A stretch of 64,000 nt of DNA from a virus (Duplodnaviria; Caudoviricetes), in the IMG/VR virus record IMGVR_UViG_3300021979_000003, positions 160,001-224,000 of that record. The stretch is one strand, 5' to 3'. Of this stretch, positions 1,474 through 64,000 are shown in pieces; position 1 is the first letter of the stretch; each line of letters opens with the position of its first letter. Under the pieces are notes generated by a model. It ran no database searches. It was not told the origin of the DNA and saw only the letters and a list, made by a program, of their open reading frames with translations. Made by a program: the position numbers and the translations under genes.

Positions 1474-1857
1474 ATGAGTAAGAAAAAATATGGCCTCATG
1501 ATTTACGTTGTGCACCCTCGTGTATTGTCCAAGAAAGCTGAAAAGAAGTGGGACGTGTACGAGGAAGTTTATATTCGTAACGGTATTCGTAAAAACCTTC
1601 TAGAACAATCTACTATTGTATTAGACTGTGCCAATATGGAAGTTTACAAGAACCGTTCTGAACGTAAAGATGACTTTTACACTATTGTATCATACCTAGC
1701 TAAGAGCCACCAACAGGTAGCTGAATTTAAAGAAGTGTACGACACCTTTATGACACAGATGGAGAAAGTAGAAGAGGAAATGCGTAAAGCCGCAGAAGAG
1801 CCTACTACGGAATCTACTGATACTACCGAAGACGAAGAAGGCGAAGGCAAAGCCTAA
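1474..1857 (+). CDS. hypothetical protein, acidic C-terminal tail
   Basis: Track ORF 1423..1857; start moved to ATG 1474 after GGAG; host-like codon use. Confidence 0.7.
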   Translation: MSKKKYGLMIYVVHPRVLSKKAEKKWDVYEEVYIRNGIRKNLLEQSTIVLDCANMEVYKNRSERKDDFYTIVSYLAKSHQQVAEFKEVYDTFMTQMEKVEEEMRKAAEEPTTESTDTTEDEEGEGKA

Positions 1858-60863: not shown

Positions 60864-60890
60864 CTATATTGATATATCAGGACAATGAAC

Positions 60891-61700
60891 ATGCGAAACT
60901 TTGACGAAATAATTGATTCTGCAACACATGAACTTGTAAAGAGTCATGGCTTTACTGATGAGAACAGTAACGAATATAAAGTATTATTCGAAGGTAGACG
61001 TGCCACACTCCTATCAGATTTCAATGATAAGGTCGATCTTAATAATATAACTGCCCCTGCCCTGAAAGGTGTCAAAGAACTTATCGCCAATGGTGTCATT
61101 GAAGACACAAAACAAACTGCGGTGGTATCGTTTTCGAGTTTAATGGCTGGTCAGTTTATCCACTTAGTTAACTTCATCAAAGACAATGACGAGCTTAAAT
61201 ATCATCAGCTTCATAATAGGTCTAATATTCTTATTGAAAATCTAACACCTTTTAAAGCTCTGCAACTTTCTGAGCTATTGAAAAATGATCTTGTATACTT
61301 GACTCTCAGTCTGAAGTACCTTGAGAAGTATGCTGAGTTGGTTCAAAGTAAAGTAATAACCATCAGTACTGATGGCAAGCTTTACAATAAAAATAAGACA
61401 TATAAGATCAATGTTCGCGTAGCAGCAAATGTTCCTGCCGCCGAGGCAAATAGACGTAAAGATCATTATGCTGACGTTATTCTAAGACTATCCAAAGGTC
61501 TAAAAGAAAAAGGCTATGATGCAATGATCGGAACATCAGGTGGTAATGTCGGTCACTCATTGACAATGTACACTGATGATATTCCATCACTTAATATTTT
61601 TAAGCTATATCGTCTTGGTAATATTAGTATTGGTGTACGTGACGATCTTAAGATGGTAACGGATGAAGAGTTTGTAGGTATTTTCAAAGACCTCTTATGA
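60891..61700 (+). CDS. hypothetical protein
   Basis: Track ORF 60885..61700; ATG 60891 is better spaced from AGGA. Confidence 0.65.
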   Translation: MRNFDEIIDSATHELVKSHGFTDENSNEYKVLFEGRRATLLSDFNDKVDLNNITAPALKGVKELIANGVIEDTKQTAVVSFSSLMAGQFIHLVNFIKDNDELKYHQLHNRSNILIENLTPFKALQLSELLKNDLVYLTLSLKYLEKYAELVQSKVITISTDGKLYNKNKTYKINVRVAANVPAAEANRRKDHYADVILRLSKGLKEKGYDAMIGTSGGNVGHSLTMYTDDIPSLNIFKLYRLGNISIGVRDDLKMVTDEEFVGIFKDLL

Positions 61701-61752: not shown

Positions 61753-62106
61753 ATGCTAGATTACGCAATTGAAAAAGCAAGAGAGATAGACCTTGATGAA
61801 AACTATGTCAGGGTCTATGCTGTTATTACTGACAAGCGTGGACGTATTGTTAGCGAAGCTCATAACAGTTACACAAAAACGCATCCACTCCAAGCACGGT
61901 TTGCTAAGATTGTTGGTAACGAAGAAGCTGTATACCTTCATGCTGAGATTCGTGCGATGGTTAAATGTAAAGAAGGTCAGGGACATAAAATGTATGTAGC
62001 TAGGGTAGGAAGAACAGGCAATCCACTTCCTGCCTGTCCGTGTGAAATTTGTCAGGCTGCAATAGAAAGACTTGGGGTGGTTAAATCAGTGGAGTATACT
62101 GTATGA
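61753..62106 (+). CDS. CMP/dCMP-type zinc-dependent deaminase
   Basis: V.AVI.DKRG.I.S...NS...HAEI.A...PCEIC. Confidence 0.85.
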   Translation: MLDYAIEKAREIDLDENYVRVYAVITDKRGRIVSEAHNSYTKTHPLQARFAKIVGNEEAVYLHAEIRAMVKCKEGQGHKMYVARVGRTGNPLPACPCEICQAAIERLGVVKSVEYTV

Positions 62107-62870
62107 GTAAAAATTTTATTGACCTTGATGCGTTTACTAAATTTGTTGCAAATACTATCAGTGGTTATATATGTGATCCTGAAACGGATTGTGACGTAAA
62201 CGATTTTCTATCTTATCCCCAATTTGTTTGGTCCTTCAACTATGGAAGTATGATTTATCATCCAGAGCTTGCAAAGGATTATGATGTTTGTGTAATACTA
62301 TCAGAACAGTTAGTTGATATCTTCAATAACATCTTTAATAAAGACATTTTCGATACATGGACTATCAATGGATATCCAATAGATGTTAAGCATACGGTGT
62401 TCAGTTATCTAGATAGTTCTGAACTCCTAGAGCTTGATTACAATATACAGAATGACCGGTCTTGCTATAGGCCGCTATATCTTAAAATGTCACACGCATA
62501 TCTACATCAAGATTCGGTAGAAATGCTGGTGTCTATGGCTTTGTGTGAAAAGCAGAAGGTTCGTCATTCTATATCACAAAAATGCTCTAACTCATTTGTT
62601 AAAGCAAAGAAAAAGTTAACGGTAGAAAAGGATTATGATCGTTATTCTTCCATGAAGTCACTGTTTCATAGTATTCGAATGGCAGTCTTTGCATATAACT
62701 ACGCTAAAGATGGTATTATAAAGCCTTCGGCGTGTTCTGAGTTATACAAAGAAATTATTGAAGATTATGAAAATCATAGTGATGACGAAGTACTTGAATT
62801 AATTAAGACTAAATACAAAGGGATTTATAATGAAAAGATGAGACTCTTTCGTCTCTTTTACCCAAAGTGA
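62103..62870 (+). CDS. pol-beta-superfamily nucleotidyltransferase-like protein
   Basis: FNYGSMIYH.ELAKDYDV (GS...DxD); C-terminal KAKKKL...KSLFHSIR helical domain. Confidence 0.7.
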   Translation: MSKNFIDLDAFTKFVANTISGYICDPETDCDVNDFLSYPQFVWSFNYGSMIYHPELAKDYDVCVILSEQLVDIFNNIFNKDIFDTWTINGYPIDVKHTVFSYLDSSELLELDYNIQNDRSCYRPLYLKMSHAYLHQDSVEMLVSMALCEKQKVRHSISQKCSNSFVKAKKKLTVEKDYDRYSSMKSLFHSIRMAVFAYNYAKDGIIKPSACSELYKEIIEDYENHSDDEVLELIKTKYKGIYNEKMRLFRLFYPK

Positions 62871-62877
62871 GAAAAGT

Positions 62878-62901
62878 ATGGTAGGTCCAAAAGTTATTTA
62901 A
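62878..62901 (+). CDS. candidate micro-ORF MVGPKVI
   Basis: ATG GTA GGT CCA AAA GTT ATT TAA, 7 nt after the nucleotidyltransferase stop, with GAGA upstream. Confidence 0.45.
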   Translation: MVGPKVI

Positions 62902-62918
62902 TATAGGAGAACCTTATT

Positions 62919-62942
62919 ATGGTTGGCCCAAAACTTATTTAA
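62919..62942 (+). CDS. candidate micro-ORF MVGPKLI
   Basis: ATG GTT GGC CCA AAA CTT ATT TAA, preceded by AGGAGA with an 8-nt spacer. Confidence 0.5.
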   Translation: MVGPKLI

Positions 62943-63999
62943 TATTAGATTTTATACTTTTAACTAAATCGTGTAAGATCATCGGGTTGGATACTGAAGG
63001 CATTGTGTTCGCTTCTAGGAAGTAAACATTGCCTTCAATTTTACCCCTTGTTATTTTACCTGAAATCTTACCAACCCCTGATACGAAAGCCCCTAGTGAC
63101 TCAGACACTTCCGTTTTTGATATTGCTATATCAACACCGCTTGCACCGTAACCTAATTCTTTAATAGCTGTAATGGCTATATTCTTACAAACATTATATA
63201 CTTCACCACTAGTAATAGATGTCATTGACATATTACTACCCATCTTTTTGTAGATACCACTTAGGTGATAATCACCATTCATGTAATACACTACAACTCT
63301 ATACTCAGACGCTATATCTAATAATGGTTGGAATACATAGTCTTCTGGGTTTTTAGGAACCTTATTAATAAGTTGACCTTCCTGTCTTTGACCACTCTTA
63401 TGTTTTGCTATAAATCGACCCTGTACATCATCACTGTCTTCATAAGTAGGAACCGTAGGAACTTTGCCTTTAAGCATATTATATTGTGATTGTTTGTTGT
63501 AATATGCATTACCGAAATGAATTGTATTTCCAACTTCAGATATAGATGAGCGCCTACCAAACTTAATCATAGCTTGTCCTTTAAGAACACTTTCGCCTAT
63601 TTCAAATACGTTGCTTTTATCTGCAAGTTTATATATGTAATTTTGGAATTGCGCAGGTGCTTCATGGACATTTGATAGAATTATTTTAAACTCAGTATCT
63701 TCTTCTGGTTCTTCTTCGTTTTCGTTTAAGTACTCATCACTAAGATGCTGTTCTACTTTATCTACTGACATTTTAGTTCCATGAGCTATCCAGTAGTTAA
63801 GAATGTTTGAACTGAATGGTGATTTTTGTGAAAAGCCAAAAGTAACATATTGGTTGCGCTTCATCAGGGTATTGATAGTTTTATTAGATGTTACGGTAGT
63901 TGCAAAGATAAACTGATAGTTATTAGCTACATCTCGTACTGCACGATATAGAAGAGTATAGGCATTAAAACTTCTCGCTTCAGGTTTGATATAAAGATA
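62935..63999 (-). CDS. ATP-grasp (RimK-like) domain protein; 5' end beyond the window
   Basis: FIAKHKSGQRQEG, YVFQPLL...EYRVVV, LGYGASGVDI, YFLEANTMPS; frame stays open upstream of the track start (63864) to the window edge. Confidence 0.75.
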   Translation of the reverse strand, partial: YLYIKPEARSFNAYTLLYRAVRDVANNYQFIFATTVTSNKTINTLMKRNQYVTFGFSQKSPFSSNILNYWIAHGTKMSVDKVEQHLSDEYLNENEEEPEEDTEFKIILSNVHEAPAQFQNYIYKLADKSNVFEIGESVLKGQAMIKFGRRSSISEVGNTIHFGNAYYNKQSQYNMLKGKVPTVPTYEDSDDVQGRFIAKHKSGQRQEGQLINKVPKNPEDYVFQPLLDIASEYRVVVYYMNGDYHLSGIYKKMGSNMSMTSITSGEVYNVCKNIAITAIKELGYGASGVDIAISKTEVSESLGAFVSGVGKISGKITRGKIEGNVYFLEANTMPSVSNPMILHDLVKSIKSNIK

Positions 64000-64000
64000 C

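Follow-up and report, generated by a model that had tools for sequence, protein, structure and literature searches.

A candidate family of seven-codon micro-genes shared by giant marine phages and Marinobacter accessory islands

Genes of seven codons are skipped by gene callers, and a function is known for only a handful of them, mccA being one. In the arbitrium (AimP) and Rap-Phr systems of Gram-positive hosts, signals of 5-6 residues are cut from secreted precursors of ~40 residues and the receptor gene (AimR or Rap) is always paired with the peptide gene, while leader and arrest peptides (the erm, cat, cmlA and msrD leaders, TnaC) lie upstream of the gene that they control and involve alternative RNA folds. 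The bar minigenes of phage lambda belong to the tRNA-sequestering or drop-off type. CreT of the CreTA modules is likewise a tRNA-sequestering minigene (PMC8501985), and mccA, the seven-codon gene of the microcin C precursor, encodes MRTGNAN, whose required C-terminal Asn is adenylated by MccB (PMC4010828). Here, we analyzed a 64,000-nucleotide (nt) stretch of viral DNA (hereafter the window; positions 160,001 to 224,000 of IMG/VR record IMGVR_UViG_3300021979_000003, which spans 239 kb with a CheckV completeness of 54%), in which two tandem seven-codon open reading frames (micro-ORFs) occupy the 64-nt gap between the stop codons of genes for a 255-residue protein (62868-62870) and a convergent 437-residue protein (62935-62937). 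Comparison with related phages and with Marinobacter genomes suggests that both belong to a genuine family of micro-genes whose released heptapeptide would act in trans in the Marinobacter lineage, an explanation to which we assign, as a whole, a probability of about 0.65.

On the plus strand, micro-ORF 1 reads ATG GTA GGT CCA AAA GTT ATT TAA and micro-ORF 2 reads ATG GTT GGC CCA AAA CTT ATT TAA (Table 1). They form the core of a 28-nt direct repeat whose copies start 41 nt apart and are identical at 25 of 28 positions. The original prediction, made from the letters alone, had described these copies, their ATG-to-TAA spans and their three differences, and all of these details proved correct on re-reading the sequence; so did the Shine-Dalgarno (SD) motifs that it placed ahead of the frames (GAGA before the first, AGGAGA before the second) and the overlap of the last 8 nt of micro-ORF 2 with the stop region of the convergent ATP-grasp gene. 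An SD-like motif accompanies 65% of the long ORFs of the phage versus 5% in a control window, so that the signals of the micro-ORFs fit those that this phage usually employs for translation. A degenerate pattern of the frames matched twice in the window, versus 0.00 matches expected from 100 shuffles, and neither the 28-nt repeat nor its sub-motifs occur anywhere else in the 239-kb record. The coding-selection signature proposed for the pair is not significant on the window alone, because at least two of three differences fall at third positions with a probability of ~26% by chance (binomial calculation). These differences have no significance on their own and become meaningful only together with the relatives, whose inclusion upheld the signature.

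Table 1. Coordinates of the micro-ORFs, their signals, flanking genes and related features (positions without a locus name are those of the window)
Feature	Position	Strand	Description
271-residue protein gene	60885-61700		First gene of the phage operon
255-residue protein gene	62103-62870	+	Upstream, co-directional; probably a Pol-beta-type nucleotidyltransferase
Sigma-70-like promoter	62803-62831		TTAAGA-17-TATAAT; rejected as a dedicated promoter
Weak SD-like GAGA	62869-62872	+	Overlapping the TGA stop of the 255-residue protein gene, 5 nt ahead of micro-ORF 1
Repeat copy 1	62877-62904	+	28 nt, around micro-ORF 1
Micro-ORF 1	62878-62901	+	Seven codons + TAA, MVGPKVI; identical or synonymous copy at the same place in L004, L008 and L011
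SD AGGAGA of micro-ORF 2	62905-62910	+	AGGAG at 62905-62909, 9 nt before the ATG
Repeat copy 2	62918-62945	+	28 nt, around micro-ORF 2
Micro-ORF 2	62919-62942	+	Seven codons + TAA, MVGPKLI; final 8 nt (62935-62942) shared with the 3' end of the convergent gene
437-residue protein gene	62935-64000 (3' part), to ~64248 past the window; L001:1736-3049	-	Convergent; probable GNAT + RimK-type ATP-grasp fusion
Promoter-like block	within L020:10030-10100		TTGGCG-N18-(G)TATnnT
Promoter-like block	within L025:1431-1500		TTGGCG-N18-(G)TATnnT
Promoter-like block	L027, L028, L032: within ~1525-1594	-	TTGGCG-N18-(G)TATnnT
Region of the MVGPKVI frame of L003	L003:4844-4932	-	Preceded by a 28-codon ORF
Hairpin	L017:2282-2297		GGAGCC-ACTT-GGCTCC
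Hairpin	within L019:3809-3945		GGGAGTAGT-ATC-ACTACTCCC
77-residue protein gene	L008:323-556; L011:1581-1814; L013:1918-2151; L015:1353-1586		Acb2/Tad1 hairpin family (PF24729, precomputed)

Relatives of the locus were collected through homologues of the 437-residue protein and their contigs were then compared, a route that introduces no pattern bias into the micro-ORF copies recovered. The same gene order was evident in five lineages, with ATP-grasp proteins 98, 87, 87, 86 and 84% identical to that of the window, and in all of them the junction is again occupied by two or three seven-codon frames. In order, these encode MVGPKVI, MTGPRVY and MVGPKLI in L004/L005; MVGPRVY and MVGPKVI in L006/L013/L014; MVGPKVI and MTGPKLI in L008-L010; and MIGPRVY, MVGPKVI and MTGPKLI in L011/L012. 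The contigs of the relatives span 458-462 kb and derive from marine samples, including TARA, and we putatively classify them and the window phage as uncultured giant T4-like marine phages. Every phage copy is exactly seven codons long, with spacers of 13-24 nt, and is preceded by GGAG or AGGAG, or, at the first position, by GAGA, GAGAG or GGGGAG; TATAGGAGAAC is kept ahead of the copy that corresponds to micro-ORF 2 in L004, L008 and L011. The orthologous last copies encode MVGPKLI in L004 and MTGPKLI in L008 and L011, with silent changes at the Gly, Pro and Lys codons. Across the phage ortholog groups, we counted 12 synonymous events versus 6 at replacement sites (P = 1.4e-3, with a neutral share of 0.30), and all six of the latter fall in codon 2, where the outcome is only ever one of the beta-branched residues V, T or I. 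Given the specificity of methionine aminopeptidase, the acceptance of such residues, Ile included, at position 2 argues that the peptide need not lose its initiator Met.

Alignment of window positions 62871-62934 with L004:2213-2314, from the 98% relative, revealed a clean 38-nt indel that corresponds to exactly one SD plus one micro-ORF (MTGPRVY) between two 'TTATTATG'-like repeats. As the window differs by this indel in lacking the middle copy of L004, its own two copies are old paralogues and not the outcome of a fresh duplication. Close relatives carry no copy, two copies or three, which marks the array as recombinationally dynamic.

The family extends to bacterial DNA. A scan for two consecutive family members in IMG/VR, JGI metagenomes and 185,579 species genomes uncovered one tandem array in the JGI metagenomes (L020/L021, MVGPRVI + MVGPRVY) and one in the species genomes, namely in a Marinobacter metagenome-assembled genome (L022, MVGPKVI + MVGPRVY). 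In both arrays the free positions of the pattern are again V2, V6 and I/Y7, for which we calculated a chance probability of ~5e-10, and L020 is itself Marinobacter-like, with a tig gene 73-84% identical to those of Marinobacter genomes. The single-copy pattern yielded 10 matches in 9 of 191 Marinobacter species genomes (none with the reversed-pattern control, ~0.7 expected) and none in 400 evenly sampled other Gammaproteobacteria (control, 1), while relaxed scans added second copies ending in TAG in L029 and in TGA in L032. A pattern search of the kind proposed in the original prediction thus brought up further family members at Marinobacter and Marinobacter-like loci. At the orthologous loci L029 and L031, 9 of the 24 nt of the micro-ORF differ, and the encoded MVGPRVY and MTGPRVI nonetheless both remain within the family consensus, with the SD kept.

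The G+C content of the bacterial loci is roughly 49-53%, versus 35% for the phage, and similarity across contexts is limited to the 24-28-nt ORF, plus a promoter-like block in six units. This block (TTGGCG-N18-TATnnT) lies ~40 nt before the ATG at five loci, that is, L020, L025, L027, L028 and both copies of L032, the latter being two full units of promoter, SD and ORF placed 194 nt apart. To judge from this arrangement, the micro-ORF appears to be an autonomous unit at these five loci, and the Marinobacter unit, of ~95-190 nt, looks like a small mobile cassette.

All members conform to the consensus M-[V/T/I]-G-P-[K/R]-[V/L]-[I/Y]-stop, and their nucleotide variation follows a strict three-base periodicity, with ATG and stop always 21 nt apart. 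Among the 15 distinct nucleotide versions, the third position of the Gly codon is T, C or A (GGT/GGC/GGA) and that of the Pro codon any of the four bases (CCA/CCC/CCT/CCG), while positions 1 and 2 of both codons are invariant, being fixed by the search in the pattern-found copies. Arg is encoded by AGA, CGA or CGG and Lys by AAA or AAG, which indicates that no particular tRNA is targeted, and the stop codon varies among TAA, TAG and TGA. Frameshifts or non-synonymous changes among homologous repeats had been named beforehand as observations that would speak against coding. Neither a frameshift nor a length change turned up; most substitutions are silent, and those that alter a residue are confined to V/T/I, K/R, V/L and I/Y. 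All ~20 copies end in I or Y, and those ending in Y always read R-V-Y and always stand alongside an I-ending copy. That both forms are kept together argues for two specific peptides and not for a generic effect of translation. Collectively, the copies in five phage lineages and ~10 Marinobacter loci support the earlier proposal of translated micro-ORFs, and the two frames of the window are very probably real translated genes under peptide-level selection.

We now turn to what such genes might do. Length, frame, start, stop, SD and amino acids are all preserved through silent change in two genomic backgrounds; together with the tandem arrays, the promoter-like blocks and the lack of a partner gene, this leads us to infer that the released peptide is the product and acts in trans, although this last step is, in our judgment, close to an even call. 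In the proposed mechanism, the micro-ORFs are separately initiated genes of a family common to giant T4-like marine phages and Marinobacter accessory islands, in which ribosomes would reach micro-ORF 1 through its weak SD or by re-initiating at the stop codon of the upstream gene, whereas micro-ORF 2 would rely on its own AGGAGA. The selected product would be the released heptapeptide, made in quantity from two or three tandem genes, with an I-ending and an R-V-Y form often produced together. As an inhibitor, ligand or decoy, this peptide may engage a cellular target conserved in the Marinobacter lineage, in a setting of phage-host or mobile-element conflict, and would neither need a dedicated adjacent partner gene nor serve as substrate of the neighboring enzymes. 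Indeed, tblastn, blastp, Pfam and PADLOC searches found no protein neighbor shared across contexts, with recurrence only between orthologous loci, so that a dedicated role of the peptides as substrates for the adjacent GNAT/ATP-grasp or nucleotidyltransferase-like enzymes is not supported.

Several observations weigh against this explanation, within a family sample of five phage lineages and ~10 bacterial loci. An 83% relative, L002, has no micro-ORFs and only 9 nt between the two stops, and relatives at or below 65% ATP-grasp identity are likewise devoid of them, with 6 nt or a hairpin at the junction; on this comparison, the micro-ORFs are dispensable. In the window, the SD of micro-ORF 1 is weak and the end of micro-ORF 2 is also constrained by the overlapping gene. 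No further tandem array was found in IMG/VR, and the scan for an SD plus a generalized ORF gave 0 matches. The bacterial copies were found by pattern, with ATG, GG, CC and TAA fixed, so that they suffer from ascertainment bias and constitute evidence only at the free positions. Finally, a lone MVGPKVI copy recovered by the IMG/VR scan on an 87-kb viral contig (L003) may have arisen by chance, as we estimate ~1-4 such matches to be expected in a collection of that size. Ahead of that frame is an ORF of 28 codons, whose start overlaps the preceding gene in the sequence TAATG, and genes for ribonucleotide reductase are found ~1.4 kb away, as they are in the giant phage.

The main rival explanation, which we consider unlikely, is a minigene acting in cis: elongation or termination would be paused by the nascent M-x-G-P-(K/R)-hydrophobic-hydrophobic chain and the released peptide would be irrelevant, with trapping of ribosomes or release factors, peptidyl-tRNA drop-off, or protection or regulation of the mRNA 3' end at the convergent junction as possible consequences. 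Strong SDs and tight tandem packing would indeed load many ribosomes on such frames, and no partner gene would be required, consistent with the unconserved neighbors. Every residue is constrained in a peptide that would lie wholly in the tunnel near the peptidyl-transferase center, as is also the case for short arrest peptides, and Gly-Pro is a slow peptide-bond pair. However, a generic effect on the ribosome leaves unexplained the two peptide forms side by side, and the stop codon is not fixed. A convergent gene lies just downstream in 7 of ~10 contexts, which favors this rival; on the other side, most contexts hold no regulated downstream gene, and folding gave no hint of alternative RNA structures (z of -0.07 to 0.9 versus shuffles, four regions, both strands). 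As for drop-off, minigenes that provoke it strongly are shorter than seven codons.

A minigene role had been among the possibilities raised by the original prediction, and its tRNA drop-off or sequestration version is weakened, since codons vary while amino acids stay. The family resembles CreT and bar in consisting of very short, strongly SD-led ORFs, found in phages or defense loci without a protein partner in cis. Those minigenes, however, act through rare codons (AUA, AGA/AGG) with an irrelevant peptide, in contrast to the conserved amino acids and drifting codons observed here, and the free choice among Arg and Lys codons likewise leaves no single tRNA as target. CreT-type tRNA sequestration is accordingly disfavored by codon variation at constant amino acids; next to the micro-ORFs we noticed neither a CRISPR-derived creA-like element nor a hairpin, although no systematic search for one was made. 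With leader and arrest peptides the family shares a conserved peptide of <10-25 residues, the importance of each residue and strong translation signals, but its ORFs either close an operon or stand alone, and show no fold signal. What follows them is usually a convergent gene, both in the phage and across most Marinobacter loci, the exceptions being L029/L031, with a gene ~400 nt downstream, and L003.

The position of the phage micro-ORFs, exactly between two enzyme genes, is what would be expected of the precursor of a modified peptide, either RiPP-like (ribosomally synthesized and post-translationally modified) or a microcin C-like peptide-nucleotide conjugate, made by the flanking nucleotidyltransferase-like and GNAT/ATP-grasp enzymes. 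A seven-codon gene beside a nucleotide-transferring enzyme is indeed the microcin C layout (PMC4010828), and mccA is, like the family, an SD-led gene of that size missed by gene callers, borne on mobile DNA and with the peptide as its selected product. Yet we deem such a precursor very unlikely, because both enzymes occur without micro-ORFs in L002 and L015/L016 and micro-ORFs occur with neither enzyme nearby at the ~10 Marinobacter loci and in L003; the suggestion that the peptides are substrates of the neighboring ATP-grasp ligase or nucleotidyltransferase is unsupported on these same grounds. MccA peptides, moreover, end in the Asn that MccB requires (PMC4010828) and are always accompanied by the ThiF-like MccB adenylyltransferase plus export and immunity genes, whereas the family ends in I or Y, has no such partner in any context, forms tandem arrays and is present in phage. 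In line with this, we found no PF00899 match and no gene for ThiF/MccB in the 239-kb record, which is 54% complete, nor any PF00899 match in Pfam scans of the ORFs flanking the Marinobacter units. The record also yielded no gene for peptide deformylase or for peptidyl-tRNA hydrolase (Pth), the latter absence being uninformative as to drop-off. The peptides contain no acidic residue, and a hydroxyl only in the T2 variants, leaving nothing for ATP-grasp macrocyclization to join, and the ATP-grasp enzyme itself resembles small-molecule dipeptide synthetases, as far as this lead goes. A graspetide precursor, which would co-occur obligately with the ATP-grasp gene and have a core with Asp/Glu plus Ser/Thr/Lys, was rejected as well, as the ATP-grasp gene occurs without micro-ORFs also in L017 and L019, the Marinobacter micro-ORFs occur without that gene, and the peptides are devoid of Asp and Glu.

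That the repeat does not code at all, being either a GGNCC-centered DNA-binding site or RNA motif or a recent neutral tandem duplication that mimics two ORFs, is in our view highly improbable. The window alone, with its three differences at the chance level given above, would accommodate this idea; the 41-nt spacing approximates four helical turns, GGNCC is palindromic, and both copies finish with 12 nt that match the 3' end of the ATP-grasp gene, which is what duplicating that junction would yield. A recent duplication is nevertheless at odds with the age of the window copies, between which L004 holds its third copy. A binding site or RNA motif, in turn, would not be expected to vary with a strict three-base period, to keep ATG and stop at a constant distance with an SD ahead of every copy, to share only 24 nt between unrelated DNAs, or to occur nowhere else in the phage record and without any structure signal. 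Related regulatory candidates fared no better. A genome-wide regulatory motif was dismissed because neither the repeat nor its sub-motifs recur within the 239 kb; the folding results and the lack of a terminator-like site in the gap discarded a terminator or structured RNA at the convergent junction; and the sigma-70-like promoter was rejected as a dedicated one because L011 reads TACAAC and the site lies within codons of the upstream gene. No Rfam match to the repeat was obtained, and no consistent terminator was found downstream of the bacterial units.

The proposed trans-acting heptapeptide also invites comparison with AimP and Phr, whose mature peptides are likewise short, carry a central basic residue, are encoded by phages or mobile elements and vary between lineages. 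Here, by contrast, the whole gene has seven codons, without a signal peptide or an adjacent receptor gene, in a Gram-negative lineage. In-frame stops upstream of the seven codons leave no room for a secreted precursor, and no neighbor conserved across contexts could represent an AimR or Rap receptor of the TPR family. More speculatively, and with rather low confidence, the heptapeptides might serve both sides of the conflict between phages and hosts of the Marinobacter lineage as a common 'currency', in the shape of directly translated, unprocessed effectors of the forms ...[K/R][V/L]I and ...RVY. The island units would then set the state of a conserved cellular machine (such as the ribosome or release factors, a protease, or a defense sensor), and the giant phage would have captured the micro-genes and multiplied them into an array that overrides or mimics the signal in infection. 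If true, this would define a new class of effectors of minimal gene size and tie giant phages, with contigs of the length given above, to a host genus.

Searches of the literature for the peptide strings found no paper, and those for minigenes and small proteins returned nothing relevant. The family is thus without description in the literature searched, and it would belong among functional ultra-short genes. Peptide-level selection in two very different genomic backgrounds, without a partner enzyme, suggests that the bare ribosomal product is active, which would be unusual. The occurrence of the family only in Marinobacter among the genomes searched also provides a host hypothesis for an uncultured clade of giant marine phages, and the family is readily testable, as the peptides can be purchased and cultured Marinobacter species carry the locus.

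In bacteria, the units sit among accessory genes, several of them in defense or mobile islands. Their neighbors include an MmeI-type restriction enzyme gene beside tRNA genes, an FRG-domain gene (PDC-S15) between IS21 and IS66, Abi_alpha (PDC-S47), a GmrSD fragment, Xre/ParS-type and Phd-type antitoxins, and a TnsA-like gene. In the phage, the operon runs from the 271-residue protein gene through genes for a dCMP deaminase and the nucleotidyltransferase-like protein to the micro-ORFs at its 3' end, which are most likely the tail of the transcript of the 255-residue protein gene.

Pfam, PHROG and PDB sequence searches were blank for the 255- and 437-residue proteins. A language-model lead links the former to NTP_transf_2/Polbeta/RlaP clusters (score 0.95, 188 shared features), and an atlas lead links the latter to GNAT+RimK, N-acetylglutaminylglutamine-synthetase-like clusters (score 0.92), with PF00583 in some of its homologues. 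The first is thus probably a Pol-beta-type nucleotidyltransferase and the second probably a GNAT + RimK-type ATP-grasp fusion similar to N-acetylglutaminylglutamine synthetase. Although itself without a Pfam match, the 437-residue protein is related to more than 20 proteins from marine assemblies. Shorter forms, of 270 residues, align with only ~57% of its length and thus point to split or single-domain versions of the fusion. The locus had no blastn match among GenBank phage records, and IMG/VR yielded a single relative of the ATP-grasp gene (in L002, the contig without micro-ORFs) and none of the 255-residue protein gene.

G+C-rich hairpins are found between the convergent genes of L017 and L019, which carry no micro-ORFs, and the micro-ORF-bearing phage clade has no hairpin at that junction. 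In Pfam, the 271-residue protein matches the superinfection exclusion protein SieB weakly and below threshold (E = 0.0055; 16.8 bits, with a cut-off of 26). Two genes past the ATP-grasp gene, at a site just beyond the right end of the window, L008, L011, L013 and L015 encode a 77-residue protein with the Acb2/Tad1 hairpin family, adjoining an intein-containing ribonucleotide reductase. These genes hint that the neighborhood holds anti-defense functions.

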